UHGV virus genome: UHGV-0086921
Origin: a virus
Length of the DNA: 18,433 nt
Strand: one strand, 5' to 3'
The position numbers and the translations under genes are program-made. The notes under the pieces are model-generated. The model did not search any database. It saw only the letters and a list, made by a program, of their open reading frames with translations, and had not been told where the DNA came from. Shown here piece after piece: positions 9,606 to 17,942 of the stretch (its first letter is position 1; each line of letters begins with the position of its first letter).

Positions 9606-9892
9606 GACTTAATCTTCCCCTCCTTCAGCAGTATCGCCTGCGTCCTGATCACGCCTTCGAGGTGGTAAAGTCTGGCGTCTTTGTTGTCGAGAATCATTGT
9701 GCGTCGGTCGATTTCATCGTGACACGCGCTACAAGCCCATGCGCCGATCAGGTCGGCAGGCTTCATTCCCGTTCCGCAAATTCCAGCCATCCGGTAATGT
9801 GCCAGAACTGTAGTTTCAGGATTACCATTGCATACGCCGTAAATACGTACCTGGCATTCTCTGCCGCGCGCTTCTTTGCGTAGGTTAGCCAT
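9602..9892 (-). CDS. DUF1364-family protein (YbcO-like, putative Cys-rich nuclease)
   Basis: 96 aa MANLRKEARGRECQVRI.GVCNGNPETTVLAH...CSACHDEIDRR..., closely resembling the YbcO protein of cryptic lambdoid prophages. Confidence 0.7.
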   Translation of the reverse strand: MANLRKEARGRECQVRIYGVCNGNPETTVLAHYRMAGICGTGMKPADLIGAWACSACHDEIDRRTMILDNKDARLYHLEGVIRTQAILLKEGKIKS

Positions 9893-10614
9893 TAAGCAGC
9901 CTCCCCTGTTACTTTCAGCATTCCGTTATCGAGCAGCTTTCTGGTCAGCCACTGTTGACCACGGCCGGTGATTTTTGTGGTGAACGATATCTGTATTCCG
10001 TGATTTGTGTTGACCGCTGTTTCTTTCACTGTGAAATAGCCGCGCTCCATATATTCCTGCATTGGCACATTGCGCCGGGAACCTGAAGCAATAAGGATTT
10101 TGTGATCGCGCATCCACGCAAACAGTTTGTTTGGACCAATTCCAACAACCTTTGCAAAGTTTCCAATCAAAATTCCGCTGGCCTCGCCAACGCGATCGGC
10201 AAACTCAACTTTAGGTGCGGCAATTGCGAGCTGGTTTTCCAGTTGCATTTTCTGCTCAGCAAGATCAGCAGCAAGGCGCAACGCTTCTGGTAGCGTTTTG
10301 GGGATATTAACCGCAGTTTCTTCAAGCTCTCGCCAGCGGTCAACAAGGCGAGCGGTGAACTCTGGCGACAACTGGGCAACAACAACAATACTATCTCGCT
10401 TACCTTGTTCGCCTTCGAAGACGTAATGCTCGTACTGAACATTGAACCCTAAGTTATTGATTCTTTCGGAAACCTCAATTTGAGGAAGCCGGATAACACC
10501 ATTTTTAGCCAGCGTTTCGATGGTACGTTTCACATTGTCATGACGCTTACCCACCAAATAAGCGATTTCAATGCTTGTCATTTTGATGGCATTGCCATTT
10601 ATTAACTCATTCAT
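9892..10614 (-). CDS. Rha-family phage regulatory protein with C-terminal antirepressor (KilAC/ANT-like) domain
   Basis: 240 aa; N-terminal MTSIEIAYLVGKRHDNVKRTIETL (Rha-like) and C-terminal GNFAKVVGIGPNKLFAWMRDHKIL (ANT-like). GAGGAA RBS upstream of the ATG. Confidence 0.7.
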   Translation of the reverse strand: MNELINGNAIKMTSIEIAYLVGKRHDNVKRTIETLAKNGVIRLPQIEVSERINNLGFNVQYEHYVFEGEQGKRDSIVVVAQLSPEFTARLVDRWRELEETAVNIPKTLPEALRLAADLAEQKMQLENQLAIAAPKVEFADRVGEASGILIGNFAKVVGIGPNKLFAWMRDHKILIASGSRRNVPMQEYMERGYFTVKETAVNTNHGIQISFTTKITGRGQQWLTRKLLDNGMLKVTGEAA

Positions 10615-10777
10615 CGTCTTCTTCCTCGTACATTGAGCTATTCGGATCGCTCATCAGTTCTGCGCAGCAATCGGAGCACACGTGAACTTCCAGCACATGC
10701 AGCTTCTGACCGCAGTTAGCGCACGTTAAAGCCCGCTCGACGCTTTCTTGTTCGTAACTTCGATTTGGGTCAATCAC
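10607..10777 (-). CDS. ninF: NinF-like small Cys-rich protein (not in the ORF track; GTG start)
   Basis: Hand translation gives 56 aa: (M)[55 protein letters not shown]. The GTG start overlaps the NinE stop (GTGA). Matches my memory of lambda NinF (orf56). Confidence 0.55.
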
Positions 10778-10956
10778 CTTGTTTTCCTCGCACGTTCTCT
10801 AAGCCACCGGATATCCCACAGGTGAGCCGTGTAGTTGAAGGTTTTTACGTCAGATTCTTTTGGGATTGGCTTGCGTTTATTTCTGGAGCGTTTCGTTGGA
10901 AGGTATTTGCAGTTTTCACAGATGATGTCGGTGATACTTCGTCGCTGTCGTCTCAT
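10774..10956 (-). CDS. ninE: NinE
   Basis: 60 aa from the internal ATG: [60 protein letters not shown], as in lambda NinE. ATGA overlap with the upstream methyltransferase stop. Confidence 0.7.
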
Positions 10957-11483
10957 GCCGCCCTCCTGACGCCCTGCCCGATCGCCATCAATGCCGCTTT
11001 GGATACGGTAGTAAACATCCGTCGAGGACTGATGAACGGTCGCCAAATCAGCAGCATGGAGCCTTTGCTGTTTCCCTTCTTCTCCAGCCCTGTCGATGGT
11101 TCGATAAAATTAATCCGTCCATCAGTGATAATGCGAACTTCGTCGACACTCTCCAGAGCCTTGCTGAACCATCCGACAGACATATCCTCTGGCACAAGCA
11201 TCACTACCGTCTGTCGCTGTTGTATGCACTGCTCAGCTGCTTTTTCCACCCACGGCCTGATATTGCTGTACGGTGGGTTATTCCAGATTGCACCGTGACT
11301 TACCCACTCAGAATTGAGCGCGTCGTCGGCCTCAGTTAGCCAGTGAGCGCACAGAGCATTTTTGTCGCTCGCTGCCGAATCCAGCCAGAATCCAAACTCA
11401 ATATCCAGTGCATCAAAAAGCCAGAGCGGCGTTTGCCAGCAGTCTCTAACTTCTTTTGGTGTTTCTGATTTATGCTTAATCAT
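10953..11483 (-). CDS. Phage DNA N6-adenine methyltransferase (Dam-type orphan MTase)
   Basis: 176 aa with the NPPY catalytic motif ([11 protein letters not shown]) and the N-terminal [12 protein letters not shown] pattern typical of the phage Dam family. Confidence 0.8.
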
Positions 11484-12007
11484 TCACCCCTCGCATATTG
11501 TCCGTGATATTTGTTGATAGCCTCACTGGCAACCAAACCAGCAAGCTCAAGATCTTCATAGAACCCAAAATGCAACCGGCCAAAATCTGTGCGCACTTGA
11601 ACGGCCCATTTATTTTTTTGCTTGTTCCATAAAACATTTTTTATTCCAGAACGGCTATTGCACTTAGTTTTCTGATTTCGGCTGTTTGCTATCCGGCTTG
11701 CCTCCCTAAGATTTTTTGGGGAATTGTCCAGCCTGTTTCCGTTAATATGGTCAATATTTTTCAATGGCATTCTTTTGTTGTGCAGCGCAAAAACAACTAC
11801 GTGAACAAACATCTGAATGCCTGCAAAACACACCTGTCTATACCCAGATCCATTTATCGATGTTTTAATTTCATCTCCGGCCCGGTGGCTGTGGTTGGGG
11901 TGTTTTAGCGAGTCCTTTTTGTATCTGACTGTATCTCCGTCTAAATACAGATAATCCTCAATAAGCCGATACCTATCTGACGCTGGCGTATTTGATTTGA
12001 TAGTCAT
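11480..12007 (-). CDS. HNH endonuclease with AP2-like DNA-binding domain (homing-endonuclease type)
   Basis: 176 aa from the internal ATG (MTIKSNTPASDRYRL...); HNH motif IDHINGNRLDNSPKNLREASRIANSRN followed by an AP2-like segment (NKWAVQVRTDFGRLHFGFYEDLELAGLVASEAINKYHG). ATGA overlap with the ninB stop. Confidence 0.75.
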   Translation of the reverse strand: MTIKSNTPASDRYRLIEDYLYLDGDTVRYKKDSLKHPNHSHRAGDEIKTSINGSGYRQVCFAGIQMFVHVVVFALHNKRMPLKNIDHINGNRLDNSPKNLREASRIANSRNQKTKCNSRSGIKNVLWNKQKNKWAVQVRTDFGRLHFGFYEDLELAGLVASEAINKYHGQYARGE

Positions 12008-12444
12008 GCAGCCCGATCTCCCCATCGCGCTTTCCATTCGAGAGCCAGTCGCGCTTCGTCTGACCACTTAACGCCACGCTCTGTACCGAATGCCTGTATA
12101 AGCTCTAATAGCTCCGCAAATTCGCTTACACGCATCCTGCTGGTTGACTGGCCTATTACCACAAAGCCATTCCCGGCAAGGTTAGGAACAACATCCTGCT
12201 GCTTTAATGCTGCGGTAAACACACACTTCCAGCTTTCTGCATCCAGCCAGCGCCCATGCCATTCAACCTGACGAGAGACGTCACCAAGGCAAGCCCAAAG
12301 CTTTCGATTCTGGTCTAAGCTGCGGTTGCGTTCCTGAATGGTTACTACGATTGGTTTGGTTGGGTCTGGAAGAATTTGCTGTACCGCGTGAATAGCGTTT
12401 TGCTGATGTGCTGGAGATCGAATTTCAAAGGTTAGTTTTTTCAT
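12004..12444 (-). CDS. ninB: NinB (Orf recombination mediator)
   Basis: 146 aa from MKKLTFEIRSPAHQQNAIHAVQQILPDPTKPIVVTIQERNRSLDQNRKLWACLGDVSRQVEWHGRWLDAESWK..., essentially lambda NinB as I recall it. Confidence 0.9.
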   Translation of the reverse strand: MKKLTFEIRSPAHQQNAIHAVQQILPDPTKPIVVTIQERNRSLDQNRKLWACLGDVSRQVEWHGRWLDAESWKCVFTAALKQQDVVPNLAGNGFVVIGQSTSRMRVSEFAELLELIQAFGTERGVKWSDEARLALEWKARWGDRAA

Positions 12445-12481
12445 GACTTCCCTCTCCCCCAAATAAAAAGGCCTGCGATTA

Positions 12482-12511
12482 CCAGCAGGCCTGTTATTAG
12501 CTCAGTGATGT
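12482..12511 (-). terminator. tR2-like intrinsic terminator between the replication and nin modules
   Basis: Minus strand: 7-8 bp perfect stem (GGCCTGC / GCAGGCC) with an 8 nt loop, followed directly by TTTTTATTTGG. Same position as tR2 in lambda. Confidence 0.6.
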
Positions 12512-12520
12512 AGATGGTCA

Positions 12521-13957
12521 TCAGAATCCCCCTTTCTTCTTGGACTGCGGTTCCTTGCGTTCACGGCGGCGAATTTCAGCAGACTGTTGGTCTGTGTCAT
12601 AAATAGCGCCATTTGCCTGAATGCAATACACCGTACCGGTATTGCCATGACGATTGAGACGAAGGATTAGTTCGGTTTCACCAGGTGGAACACTGTCATC
12701 AAAAGCGCCTTCACGATGGATCCCAACCCAATAATCGCAATCCTGTTCAATCTGCCCTGTATCTCGTGAGTCACTTGGTAATGGGCGTTTATTGGTTCGG
12801 CTTTCCAGTGCGCGGTTAAGCTGCGTCAGAAGCACAACAACGCAATCAAGCTCTTTGGCAAGGTTCTTCAGTCCTTTGGTGATCATGCCGTAAGCAAGGT
12901 CGTTGCGATCGGCCTTCTCAGCGGTCATTAGTGTCAGGTAATCGACCAGAATCATGCCAACACATCCTTTTTCTCGCTTGATTCGACGGCTTTCGCTGAC
13001 GATTTGAGCCAGAGATAATCCCGGCGTGTCGTCGATGTAAAGCATGTCGATTTCACTCAAGCGATTAGCTGTTTCGATCGCCCTGTTGAAGGCACCATCG
13101 TAATCACCCTGATAGCCGTCATCAGCGTCATTTGTCGCCGGAAGGTAAAAAATATTCGGGTTAACACCAGACTTCTGCCCTACCAGTTTTTCCAGTATCT
13201 GATCACCTGGCATTTCAAGGCTGAACATCAAAGCGGGCTTTTTCTCATGCACTGCGCAATTGATTGCCATCTGGCTGTATAGCGTCGTTTTCCCCATCTT
13301 AGGGCGAGCGCCAATGACAAACAGAGAGCCTTTCACCAGACCTTTCGGTGACAGCATCCTGTCCAGCGATGGGATCCCTGTGCTCATTCCCCGTTGTTCG
13401 CCTGATGGGTCAAATCGCTTCTCAAGGTCGCTAACCCAGTCTTCCATGACCTCACCAAATGAACGAAGGCCGCGACGCGATCCGGTTTTTGCATGGTCTG
13501 TCAGTTGCGTGAAAATCGCCTGAATAGCTTCGTACTTCTGCGTTGCAGTCATTCCGTTGCGGGAATAGAGCAATTCCGTCGCTTCAGTCATGCGGTTGAT
13601 GGCGTAGCGTTCCATTGCGGTTTCACGAACCTGCATTGCATAGGCAACGATGTTTGCTGCGCTTGGCGTGTTCTTTGCGATCTCAGCGATATAAGCAAAA
13701 CCGCCAACAGACGCCGTTAACGATTTACGCTCCAGTTCATCGAAAAGCGTCAGGCCATCTACTGGCTTTTGCTCCCGGTGCATTCTGGTTATTTCTTCGA
13801 AAAGGATTTTGTGTGGTCGGCCGTAAAATGAATCAGGCTTCAGCATCGCCAGAACTTTCCGGACGCGCTCACTGCTGTCATCATCCAGAAGCAATCCACC
13901 AATCACCGCCTGCTCTGCCTCGATGCTATGGGGCGGCGCATAAAAATTATCGGTCAT
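12521..13957 (-). CDS. Replicative DNA helicase, DnaB family (P22 gp12-type)
   Basis: About 478 aa with Walker A GARPKMGKT, Walker B MILVDYL, and the DnaB-like N-terminal domain (IEAEQAVIGGLLLD). Preferred start MTDNFYAPP; overlaps the upstream gene stop. Confidence 0.9.
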   Translation of the reverse strand: MTDNFYAPPHSIEAEQAVIGGLLLDDDSSERVRKVLAMLKPDSFYGRPHKILFEEITRMHREQKPVDGLTLFDELERKSLTASVGGFAYIAEIAKNTPSAANIVAYAMQVRETAMERYAINRMTEATELLYSRNGMTATQKYEAIQAIFTQLTDHAKTGSRRGLRSFGEVMEDWVSDLEKRFDPSGEQRGMSTGIPSLDRMLSPKGLVKGSLFVIGARPKMGKTTLYSQMAINCAVHEKKPALMFSLEMPGDQILEKLVGQKSGVNPNIFYLPATNDADDGYQGDYDGAFNRAIETANRLSEIDMLYIDDTPGLSLAQIVSESRRIKREKGCVGMILVDYLTLMTAEKADRNDLAYGMITKGLKNLAKELDCVVVLLTQLNRALESRTNKRPLPSDSRDTGQIEQDCDYWVGIHREGAFDDSVPPGETELILRLNRHGNTGTVYCIQANGAIYDTDQQSAEIRRRERKEPQSKKKGGF

Positions 13958-14846
13958 CGTGTTCACCCTCACGAACTTTCAGGTAGGTATTATCGTTAAG
14001 CAGGAAATCAAATCCCTTTTTGTGCCAGACGGTTCCGCGCTGATGGTTTGGGCGCTCTTCGAACATCCATCGGCAATTTTCGCCTACGTAGCTCAAATAA
14101 TTTCTCCAGTCCTGCATCGTGAAACCATGCCCGTCAAGCTGTCGGGTTATCACTCCGGCTTTGCGCCAGAACGTTCGGATCTGGTTTTTACGCTTGTCAT
14201 TCAGTGCGCGGATTCTTGGCGCTTCAGGAAGGATTTCGTGGTAAGCATCGACAACATCCTGACAGCTGACGGAAGGTTTTTTCTTGTCAGACTTTTTGTC
14301 TGCTGTGGCACTCTCTAATACGTCAGTATTAGAGATAATATTATTATATTCTTTATCTGTGGTAATTTGCTGGTAATCTGCTGGTACAGTATTGCTTGCA
14401 GGCATTGGTATTGCTGGCTTTGAGGTGGTAATTTGCTGGTAATCTGCTGGTACAAAATTTGACTGATAATCGTCATATTTCTCTACCGAGAAAACTGAGA
14501 ATTTACCGTGTGAAACCCAGTCAATCATGCCGAGTTTTTTGAACTTTCTAAGCAGGTACTGAACGCGATCTGGTTTGAGTCCTGTTTCAAACGCCAGAGT
14601 ATTTCTACCGCCAAGTAGCTTCCCTCTGCCTACCAGAATTTCTCCTGCGTCAGTCATTACATACTCAGGCGTATGCTTTGCTTTGAGGATTAAGTGAACC
14701 CACAGATGCGCAGTTTCTGCGTCCTTGTAAAACGGCACATCCATAATTTTACGGTGCAGCAAGGCATACCCCTTACCGCTGCTTTGATGCGGTTGTTGTA
14801 GCCTTCTGGCCTCTCTGGCTTCGGCTAGATTAGATATGTTACTCAT
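13947..14846 (-). CDS. Replication initiation protein (O-like / P22 gp18-like), with origin iterons inside the gene
   Basis: 299 aa ORF directly upstream of the helicase gene. It contains tandem peptide repeats ([10 protein letters not shown] x2) encoded by DNA direct repeats, the hallmark of lambdoid initiators whose ori lies within the gene. Confidence 0.75.
14355..14455. repeat. Origin-of-replication iteron array inside the initiator gene
   Basis: Two roughly 30 bp direct repeats GTGGTAATTTGCTGGTAATCTGCTGGTACA (about 14358-14389 and 14423-14454) built from CTGGTAAT-type sub-repeats, flanked by an AT-rich stretch around 14320-14360. Confidence 0.55.
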
Positions 14847-15735: not shown

Positions 15736-16383
15736 ATGAAAACGATGCATGAAATTATCGGGGAAAGGATCAAGTCCCTTAGAGAAGCTAAAGGACTTAG
15801 CCAGGCTCAATTGGCCAAGCTTTGCGGCTGGGCTGCGCCTTCACGCCTGGGGAACTACGAGTTAGGAACAAGAAAGGTTAGCGCGGATGACGCGCTGGTT
15901 CTTGGGGCGGCACTCGGCGTATCTCCGGCAAAAATAATGTTTGGCGAGGATTCAGACGCCGTATTTCGCCAATATGAATACCCGTTATTTTCTTCAGTGC
16001 AGGCCGGGCCATTTTCGGAGGTGGGAAGCTACACAGCCAGCGATGCAAAGGCATGGGTCCCAACGACCACAAAAGCCAGCGAAAAAGCTTTCTGGCTTGA
16101 GGTGAAGGGGCATTCAATGACGGCGCCTCAGGGGGTTCGTCCAAGTTTTCCGGAAGGCATGCTGATACTCGTTGATCCGGCTGAGCCGGTAGAGTCTGGG
16201 GATTTCTGCGTGGCTTCTGCAAATGGTGATTCAGAGGCAACGTTCAAGAAGTATGAGAAGGATGCAGGGGTTAGTTACCTGGTACCTTTAAACCCGGCAT
16301 ATAGAACACTGGATTGCGACCATAGCTGCCGCATCATAGGCAAGGTAGTTAAGGCGCAGTGGCCTGAAGAGACGTTTGGCTGA
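15736..16383 (+). CDS. cI: CI prophage repressor (LexA-like S24 autopeptidase family)
   Basis: 215 aa with an N-terminal HTH ([12 protein letters not shown]...) and C-terminal S24 features (VKGHSMTAP... Ser nucleophile, and a later Lys in IGKVVK). An in-frame alternative start at 15745 has an AAGGG RBS. Confidence 0.9.
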
Positions 16384-16533
16384 TCGGCAAGGTGTTCTGG
16401 TCGGCGCATAGCTGGTGAAAAAATTATTTAATGCGGTGTATTGGCTGATTGTAACCCCATGTAACATCTTGCCGTCACCATTTCGGTGGTTAGATTTTTA
16501 ATAAAAAAAAACAAATGTATAGCAAGGTTTTTT

Positions 16534-17013
16534 ATGGATAAAATTAATTACCCACCCCTGTTTGAGCCAGGGTTCCATGACATGGATGAAGCTGGATTAA
16601 AATCGTATTGTGTCGATTGCTTTCCTTCATCATCCAGGCGAGGCATGCTATACTGTAATTTTATACAGCTACTCGAATCTATTCGAGAATTATCTGCTCA
16701 ATATGGCTGTTTTACAGAAATATGGGTTGATGGTTCATACACCACGTCTAAACCAGAGCCTGATGATATTGATATTTTGTTGGTATGTGACTATAGCAAT
16801 ATAAACTCAATACCTGTCATGCTTCGGGGCCGCGTCGATAATTTGCTTGACCGAAACTACATCAAACAAAACTACAAAATTGATGTCCTACTACTCATGA
16901 AGAATTTAGATGACCCTAACTATGATTATGAGTACTGGCGTAGCTACTGGCGCGGTTGGTTTGGTTTTGATCGCAGTGAAAACCCGAAAGGGTTAGTGAG
17001 GATTTTTTTATGA
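16534..17013 (+). CDS. Predicted minimal nucleotidyltransferase-fold protein (Pol-beta superfamily-like), cargo gene A
   Basis: 159 aa from MDKINYPPLF... (the track ORF starts at an upstream GTG in an A/T run, less likely). Motif EIWVDGSYTTSKPEPDDIDILLV fits the NTase GS-x(9-13)-DxD signature. AAGG RBS; AT-rich codon usage unlike the surrounding phage genes. Confidence 0.55.
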   Translation: MDKINYPPLFEPGFHDMDEAGLKSYCVDCFPSSSRRGMLYCNFIQLLESIRELSAQYGCFTEIWVDGSYTTSKPEPDDIDILLVCDYSNINSIPVMLRGRVDNLLDRNYIKQNYKIDVLLLMKNLDDPNYDYEYWRSYWRGWFGFDRSENPKGLVRIFL

Positions 17014-17942
17014 ATGATAAATCAATGTTTAAAAATTGCGATAAACGCATTGATTTCATTCAAAAAGAAGTCGATGCAATGAAGCAAAACAAAACCAGGT
17101 CCTTTGCTGACATGCTTCTTTATCGCTCCATGGATTCTCATCTGAGCGATTTGAAGGCCGAAAAATTAAAGCAAGATAGTCGGCACCCACTTATCGATTT
17201 TTTTGAGCTGCGGCTGAAAGGCTCTGAGGTTGACTTTGGCTCTATTCCTTTAGAGCTGCTTGGGGCTATTTCAACAAATCTTGCAGCGCTAATACAAAGA
17301 GCAACACACAAAATTGCCTCAGGCAAGGACTCAAAAAAAGTTCCCTACGACGTGAAAAGCTCCTTAAACCTCAGGCTGGCTGATTTATCCCCTGGGTCTA
17401 CAAAATTGGGCGTCACCTTCTCTACAGGAATAGCAGAATTAGTAGAAACAGTACCCAGCAAGGCTGTAAAAGGCATATTCGATTTGTTGTTAAGCGATGA
17501 CGACAACAACTTCATGAATCACGTCGCTGAAATTGGATACAATTCCACTGTAAGCCTTAAGAGAATCGTAGAGGAATGCGATAAACACAACTTAACATTT
17601 GATGCAAGTTGGACCGGTCCATTTAGTAATGGCACCAAGGTGGCAACTATTGACTCCAATAAAATTAAGTACTTGGTGAGTAGACTTACATCAACCATTT
17701 CATCCCCTCCCATTACTGAAACGGTTACAGGCGAACTGGTCGTTCTATCCAAATATGGGAAGCTGGAGCTTGATGTTGGTGGTGAACATTTAAAGGCTTC
17801 CTATCCGATTGAAATGCTAGATTTAATACAAAAAAAACACAAGGTCGGACAGATTGTTTCTCTTTTAGTGGAGACTACTGAGATTCACAATGATCGCATA
17901 GGTCTGTACCGTAAAAACCATCTTGTTAAATCGGTTCTTTAA
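17010..17942 (+). CDS. Hypothetical protein (310 aa), cargo gene B, translationally coupled to gene A
   Basis: Its start overlaps the gene A stop (ATGA at 17010-17013). No transmembrane segments are apparent and I recognise no family. AT-rich. Followed by a strong terminator. Confidence 0.6.
   Translation: MNDKSMFKNCDKRIDFIQKEVDAMKQNKTRSFADMLLYRSMDSHLSDLKAEKLKQDSRHPLIDFFELRLKGSEVDFGSIPLELLGAISTNLAALIQRATHKIASGKDSKKVPYDVKSSLNLRLADLSPGSTKLGVTFSTGIAELVETVPSKAVKGIFDLLLSDDDNNFMNHVAEIGYNSTVSLKRIVEECDKHNLTFDASWTGPFSNGTKVATIDSNKIKYLVSRLTSTISSPPITETVTGELVVLSKYGKLELDVGGEHLKASYPIEMLDLIQKKHKVGQIVSLLVETTEIHNDRIGLYRKNHLVKSVL

Follow-up and report, generated by a model that had tools for sequence, protein, structure and literature searches.

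A phage Dam methyltransferase gene of the M.EcoVT2Dam type and a putative homing-endonuclease insertion at its start in a lambdoid nin region

The window analysed here, an 18,433-nucleotide stretch of viral DNA (UHGV-0086921), is a lambdoid prophage or phage. Its minus strand carries, at positions 10953..11483, a gene (dam) for a phage N6-adenine DNA methyltransferase of 176 residues, which begins at an ATG. Very probably, the product is a small Dam enzyme, an allele of M.EcoVT2Dam, that methylates GATC and tops up the work of host Dam during lytic growth; the HNH endonuclease gene next to it would be an independent selfish insertion. Judged by its sequence, the window gene is an allele of the already characterised M.EcoVT2Dam gene, and it is both well known and very common. 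As a discovery, dam therefore matters little, being among the commonest prophage genes of E. coli and encoding an enzyme that was already cloned and assigned to GATC. The sole mildly new item is the series of HNH insertion and loss at the dam start. Insertion and deletion scars together provide a clean, small example of homing-endonuclease invasion, followed by loss, in a prophage operon.

The dam product matches Pfam family PF05869 ('Dam') with an E-value of 8.2e-66 and 221 bits (cut-off 28), covering profile positions 1-167 of 169. It scores 264 bits against the NCBIfam equivalog model TIGR01712 (phage_N6A_met; cut-off 97) and matches phrog_111 with an E-value of 6e-87. These matches are far beyond chance; full-length and above the curated cut-offs, they identify the product as a phage N6-adenine methyltransferase of PF05869/TIGR01712. 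The preliminary description, which had read exactly this ORF, with its NPPY motif, as a Dam-type N6-adenine methyltransferase, is confirmed by all three matches. At a nucleotide identity of at least 95%, dam is present in 1566 of 5426 complete E. coli genomes, at 2192 places. Phage records that contain it number 244; among them are many Stx phages as well as HK544, HK140, Sf101 and mEp506. The Dam homologues of T1-like phages are 35-36% identical to the window protein; T1 Dam itself is presumably a member of the PF05869 family.

RefSeq (PGAP) places the dam start differently between genomes. In some it is an ATT, one codon past the ATG (175 residues; window 11481-11483, annotations of loci L002 and L003), and in others, e.g. 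E308, it is the ATG (176 residues). The ATG at 11483 is the more plausible start, because it overlaps the HNH stop and a Shine-Dalgarno-like GAGGGG run lies upstream of it at 11487-11492. An antisense ORF of 177 residues (10765-11298) was also considered as a gene and was rejected for want of a significant family match. The Rfam scan of the whole window gave no match.

Motif IV, the catalytic adenine-binding NPPY, was read from the sequence at residues 69-72 (11268..11279, minus strand), where it is encoded by AACCCACCGTAC. P70, P71 and Y72 are invariant in an alignment of 25 homologues and N69 is nearly so; in the comparison with the VT2, HP1 and phi93 enzymes, all four residues are invariant. 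The motif I-like FWLDSAAS (residues 32-39; 11367..11390, minus strand) is the presumed AdoMet-binding loop after strand 1. F32, D35 and A37 of this motif are invariant among the 25 homologues, and F32, L34 and D35 across the members characterised for GATC. The AF2 model, made with the 25 homologues (mean pLDDT 82, pTM 0.82), has a core of alternating strands and helices, in which FWLDSAAS maps to strand E32-37; residues 1-8 form a low-confidence tail (pLDDT <50).

A PDB sequence search with Dam identified no solved relative, only matches at chance level (E 0.24 or weaker), so a fold search (Foldseek) was used instead. The best solved matches belong to the cap-specific adenosine-N6 methyltransferase CAPAM/PCIF1 (6irx family; E 7e-5, TMq 0.55-0.58); CamA, EcoDam, KsgA-type enzymes and M.BseCI came later. 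As modelled, the fold of Dam is that of a class-I (Rossmann-like), AdoMet-dependent N6-adenine methyltransferase. Fold and motifs together suggest a minimal class-I Rossmann-type, S-adenosylmethionine-dependent enzyme. AdoMet would be bound at the loop after strand 1, which holds the invariant D35, and the NPPY pocket would take up the flipped-out target adenine.

Window Dam and VT2-Sakai orf32 (NP_050531) are identical at 167 of 172 positions in BLASTP. All five mismatches are located at residues 7-13; residues 14-176 of the two proteins are thus identical. VT2-Sakai orf32 is M.EcoVT2Dam, whose target is given as 5'-GATC-3' in PMC6602927 with reference to Radlinska and Bujnicki (2001); the same cloning paper also stands in the reference list of PMC7556043. 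HP1 orf13 is a PF05869 member (E 7e-75) of 34% identity to window Dam; HP1 Dam is cited in PMC7556043 as a cloned phage Dam, and it is reported to be a GATC enzyme. The lactococcal enzyme M.Phi93DAM (KM091443 Phi93_04) is likewise a member of PF05869 (E 6e-34), with 32% identity to window Dam. SMRT sequencing gave G6mATC for this enzyme, and the cloned gene made DNA resistant to DpnII and sensitive to DpnI (PMC4190342).

The target predicted for window Dam, N6 of the adenine in GATC, can be taken as effectively known. It had been described as unknown; this statement falls, since GATC is reported for a near-identical member, M.EcoVT2Dam, and for two members at about one-third identity (32-34%). 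The 18.4-kb window contains 59 GATC sites. GATC is mildly depleted, with observed/expected ratios of 0.6 under a Markov model and 0.83 under base composition, values for which 18 kb is too short to allow an interpretation. E. coli and enterobacterial hosts are Dam-positive, and their GATC sites are already methylated. A search for a new m6A motif in a Dam-positive host would for this reason be falsely negative; methylome tests of such genes need a dam-negative host, otherwise they will appear negative.

On the minus strand of the window, cII, an O-like gene, a DnaB-like P gene (12521-13972) and a strong terminator-like hairpin are followed by NinB, HNH, Dam, NinE, NinF, Rha/Ant, YbcO, RusA, Q, the lysis genes, terminase and portal; cI (15736-16383) is on the plus strand. 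The nin-region location given earlier for dam agrees with this order, the gene being flanked by NinB, NinE, NinF, YbcO and RusA, with Q, cII, cI and the DnaB-like P further out. Upstream of dam, ninB (12004..12444, minus strand; Pfam NinB E 1.3e-54) encodes an Orf-family recombination mediator; the ATG at 12444 was chosen as its start instead of the TTG at 12462, where the listed ORF begins. Downstream of dam, ninE (10774..10956, minus strand) matches Pfam NinE (E 9.6e-43) from residue 31 of a longer listed ORF. Four-base ATGA stop/start overlaps are present at three junctions, NinB/HNH, HNH/Dam and Dam/NinE: the TGA of ninB overlaps the ATG from which HNH now starts and dam originally did; the HNH TGA stop overlaps the ATG of window dam; and the dam TGA stop overlaps the ninE ATG.

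An intrinsic-terminator-like hairpin (12469..12492, minus strand) lies between the DnaB-like P gene and ninB. It has an 8-bp stem with six GC pairs and is followed by TTTTATTT; from its position, it would be the equivalent of lambda tR2. No promoter-like sites were seen between this hairpin and dam. Because the coupled block lies behind a tR2-like terminator, the dam transcript is, by position, probably delayed-early and antitermination-dependent; the nin operon, the upstream terminator and the ATGA overlaps point to a Dam protein made in lytic growth as a delayed-early product. The expression data for phi24B, whose dam product is reported to be 100% identical to the VT2-Sakai protein, are consistent with such lytic, delayed-early expression. 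The phi24B gene was among five CMAT genes assayed by qPCR, four of which tracked the lytic cycle; on induction, dam showed a significant change in expression (PMC3342100).

Several other features of this region were observed. A Rha/KilAC antirepressor-type gene (9892-10614, minus strand; Pfam ANT E 1e-32, and Phage_pRha) lies between ninF and ybcO, a typical mosaic addition to nin regions. Just downstream of Q, the minus strand has a promoter-like site (8395-8367) and then a strong terminator-like hairpin (8333-8305), a layout as expected for a pR'/tR' pair of late promoter and terminator. Two overlapping genes (16486-17942, plus strand) directly follow cI, where rex lies in lambda. In PADLOC, both correspond to parts of the candidate defence system PDC-M63, one to PDC-M63A (also Pfam DUF6932; E 2e-41) and the other to PDC-M63B (E 7.5e-45); judging from these matches, the pair is probably a prophage-encoded anti-phage module.

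No restriction endonuclease adjoins dam, whose neighbours are NinB, HNH_3, NinE, NinF, Rha/Ant, YbcO and RusA. The HNH_3 protein is the sole nuclease beside it and is of the homing-endonuclease kind; PADLOC classes Dam as an orphan MTase (oMTase, E 1.9e-20). These observations support dam as an orphan methyltransferase, without a cognate restriction endonuclease in the locus, in line with what had been proposed.

The most likely job of phage Dam would be to supplement limiting host Dam, such that the many GATC sites of phage DNA are all methylated during rapid replication and in packaging. Host Dam is reported to leave lambda and P22 virion DNA undermethylated, 'possibly because replication outstrips modification' (PMC8022706), which speaks for such a need. 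Fully methylated phage DNA would be refractory to DpnII/MboI-type enzymes in a later host, to MutH incision and to SeqA binding. What a phage of a Dam-carrying host gains from a GATC methylase of its own is a testable question.

Anti-restriction is plausible as one of several possible benefits of phage Dam, beside protection from MutH and SeqA. That it is the primary role, with phage DNA shielded from DpnII/MboI-type enzymes on entering a new host, is possible but lies on the improbable side. M.Phi93DAM does shield DNA from DpnII in vitro, that of plasmids as well as that of the phage, and R-M systems of this type occur in lactococci (PMC4190342). The undermethylation of lambdoid virion DNA by host Dam (PMC8022706) would leave GATC sites partly unmethylated and thus exposed, and PADLOC groups Dam with the orphan MTases. 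However, according to a paper by the group behind the cloning of the VT-2 enzyme, what phage Dam enzymes do 'is still not well understood' (PMC7556043). Methylated GATC would, moreover, make DNA a target for DpnI-type enzymes. The enterobacterial hosts have a Dam of their own, and we found neither a report of GATC-cutting, methylation-sensitive restriction that limits lambdoid phages in E. coli nor an experiment in which a lambdoid Dam altered virion methylation, plating efficiency or fitness. Restriction systems that are specific for GATC and sensitive to its methylation are not known to be common in E. coli, and the expected benefit is smaller for it.

Control of mismatch repair and recombination is an unlikely primary role. 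A burst of Dam would remove hemimethylated GATC, so that MutH could not incise phage DNA; equally unlikely is the extension that recombination and replication intermediates are protected in this way and recombination between diverged phages is favoured, in concert with NinB and RusA. In the uninvaded alleles of VT2-Sakai and HK544, dam is translationally coupled to ninB, and it shares one operon with RusA and YbcO; Dam overproduction abolishes strand discrimination in E. coli, which also counts for a block of MutH. The argument is nevertheless purely inferential, the gene order of nin regions is mosaic, and many nin regions have no dam. It is quite unlikely that Dam is mainly a modulator of recombination and repair, one that disarms MutH-directed repair and so contributes to the mosaicism of lambdoid genomes.

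A role in lysogeny, in which phage Dam would supplement host Dam in lysogens and stabilise the prophage or set methylation-dependent switches, is just as doubtful as the modulator role. Stable lysogeny of 933W depends on host Dam, and a supplementary role of the phage enzyme was proposed in the phi24B study (PMC3342100). However, the qPCR results of the same study, with four of five CMAT genes tracking the lytic cycle and dam changed significantly on induction, argue for lytic expression; the position of dam behind a terminator in the pR operon also speaks against expression in repressed lysogens. Top-up of host Dam in lytic growth is the reading that we prefer for the methylase.

The second part of the preferred reading concerns the HNH gene. 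This gene of homing type (11480..12007, minus strand; 175 residues from the ATG at 12007, beginning MTIKSNTPAS...) is inserted within the 5' end of dam. Its product matches the full 46-position profile of Pfam HNH_3 (E 5.5e-11), i.e. the HNH catalytic domain is intact, and it matches phrog_99 HNH endonuclease with an E-value of 1e-43; PADLOC gives 'homing endonuclease', weakly (E 7e-4). The first 26 nt of the HNH ORF, ATGACTATCAAATCAAATACGCCAGC (11982..12007, minus strand), form the left junction of the insertion and are identical to the first 26 nt of ordinary dam in VT2-Sakai and HK544. HK544, which shares the NinB allele of the window but lacks the HNH gene, can serve as the uninvaded reference.

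The start of the ordinary dam allele (VT2-Sakai, HK544) encodes MTIKSNTPAHDK. In the window, as aligned with these two alleles, it is replaced by a variant ('type-2') start of 39 nt and 13 residues (11445..11483, minus strand), and identity with the ordinary allele resumes past this diverged stretch at GACTGCTGG. The preliminary description noted a phage Dam-family N-terminus; the first 13 residues, however, differ from those usual for this gene and represent a rare variant associated with the HNH insertion.

The HNH gene is present in 34 of the 5426 E. coli genomes and absent from ~98% of those that carry dam. Of the 5426 genomes, 40 have the variant dam start, which in 34 is accompanied by the HNH gene; among the 244 phage records, the variant start is absent. 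Six genomes thus have the variant start without the HNH gene (HNH 3' remnant of 6 to 37 nt). We inspected four of these six loci (L003, L007, L008 and L009); three keep an HNH 3' remnant, the ORF is precisely gone from the fourth, and no two of the junctions are alike. In strain E2, an internal deletion between two CTATCAA repeats left a 14-codon mini-ORF. In FDAARGOS_944, NinB is joined to ...CACGGACAATATGCGAGGGTTGA; the E308 junction is at a shared GAGGG, and in TW10590 the HNH ORF was lost precisely at a shared ATGA. The deletion junctions of the HNH-less loci sit at short microhomologies (CTATCAA, GAGGG, ATGA). The four different junctions indicate that the variant start came in together with the HNH gene and that several losses of this gene followed.

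Among phages, the nearest relatives of the HNH protein are only 35-46% identical to it and are annotated as HNH homing endonucleases; they occur at unrelated genome positions, with several copies in T5-like phages. Among near-identical loci, the HNH gene is sporadic at one fixed site and the flanking target is altered, a distribution of the homing type. By these features, the HNH gene looks like a selfish, homing-endonuclease-type insertion in the dam start, whose product would be a putative target-cleaving enzyme. The element would have inserted after nt 26 of dam, taken over the dam start codon and its coupling to ninB, and brought along a recoded 39-nt replacement start for dam. It is possible that the gene is an active gene drive, with a product that cleaves the start of dam in rival lambdoid prophages; dam is carried by ~29% of E. 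coli genomes. If so, the recoded dam start would be its immunity determinant. The gene drive is better supported than the role of Dam as a recombination modulator discussed above.

Further HNH genes were seen in a related prophage of E. coli E200086 (L002, 7750-11070), whose nin region has several of them. One lies between a partial and a complete copy of ninF, as though ninF had been invaded in a similar way; upstream of ninB there are an intact and a truncated HNH gene.

The variant N-terminus might have altered the specificity of window Dam or abolished its activity, leaving an inactive remnant of the HNH insertion. We consider this very unlikely. Although nine of the first 13 residues are unlike those of the tested enzyme M.EcoVT2Dam, the ORF is intact, and everything from residue 14 onwards is the same in both. 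The family-invariant residues S6, T8, D14 and W16 are all present in the window allele, and residues 1-8 are modelled as disordered. The 90%-identity cluster with the best match to window Dam, variant start included (P0001, 98% identical over the full length), has 528 member sequences, and the variant start persists in HNH-less loci. As residues 1-8 have a pLDDT below 50 and S6 and T8 are retained, we expect the activity of the window allele to be unchanged.

A restriction-modification-like or toxin/antidote pair, in which HNH would cut a site protected by Dam, is extremely unlikely: the ATGA overlap, co-transcription and the existence of HNH-type restriction enzymes would fit it, but only 34 genomes carry the HNH gene against 1566 with dam, HNH-less loci retain the variant dam start, the 5' end of the HNH gene is the first 26 nt of dam, a sign of insertion, the relatives of its product are annotated as homing endonucleases at unrelated positions and in multiple copies in T5-like phages, and the PADLOC score of the HNH protein is only a weak one for 'homing endonuclease'. 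The adjacency of dam and HNH, pointed out earlier as notable, is thus real, but a functional pairing does not follow from it, the HNH gene being a sporadic mobile insertion (34 versus 1566 of 5426 genomes). Annotators should not take the HNH neighbour of dam as a restriction partner.

Among known systems, M.EcoVT2Dam is the closest; it is the same gene as that of 933W-type Stx phages, HK97 gp62 and phi24B dam. Like in the window, it has the ninB-dam-ninE position and the ATGA coupling to ninE. Different from the window allele with its variant start, the first 13 residues of M.EcoVT2Dam are MTIKSNTPAHDK, and its gene adjoins ninB directly, whereas in the window the HNH gene lies between dam and ninB. 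HP1 Dam (orf13, M.HinHP1Dam) is also of PF05869 and of similar size (173 residues), with D35 and NPPY conserved. However, it is only 34% identical to window Dam and comes from a P2-like phage of a Haemophilus host, in which the gene follows rep.

M.Phi93DAM, from a lactococcal 936-type phage, shares PF05869 with window Dam, and its G6mATC methylation and DpnII protection were demonstrated experimentally (PMC4190342). The protective value is clear in this case, because the phi93 host has no Dam. Compared to window Dam, the phi93 enzyme is smaller (140 residues), lacks the C-terminal helix and is 32% identical, and its gene is located in the packaging module between the terminase subunits. Like window dam, the phi93 gene has a putative HNH homing endonuclease immediately upstream of it, PHEasePhi93I (L004, phi93 1684-2790); this adjacency of Dam and HNH is a second, independent case.

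E. coli Dam and T4 Dam (alpha-class) have the same G6mATC target and the same chemistry as window Dam. Different from it, they belong to another family, are larger and have a separate DNA-recognition domain. The EcoDam chains 2ore and 2g1p show a remote fold similarity to window Dam in the catalytic core (probability 0.91-0.97, TMq about 0.3); no sequence similarity of window Dam to E. coli Dam or T4 Dam was detected. The GATC specificity common to PF05869 Dam and to E. coli and T4 Dam looks convergent. Convergence has been argued for another phage GATC enzyme, which is of the MT-A70 family and not of PF05869 (PMC7556043).

For the HNH insertion, the known counterparts are free-standing phage HNH homing endonucleases, for example gene 31 (eaE-HNH) of the Salmonella phage epsilon34, an in-frame fusion of HNH with the N-terminal part of the invaded gene (PMC2629481). 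Like the window HNH gene, it lies in the early operon of a lambdoid/P22-like phage (PMC2629481). Different from eaE-HNH, the window insertion, whose cleavage activity and target are putative, also supplies a recoded start, and dam stays intact.
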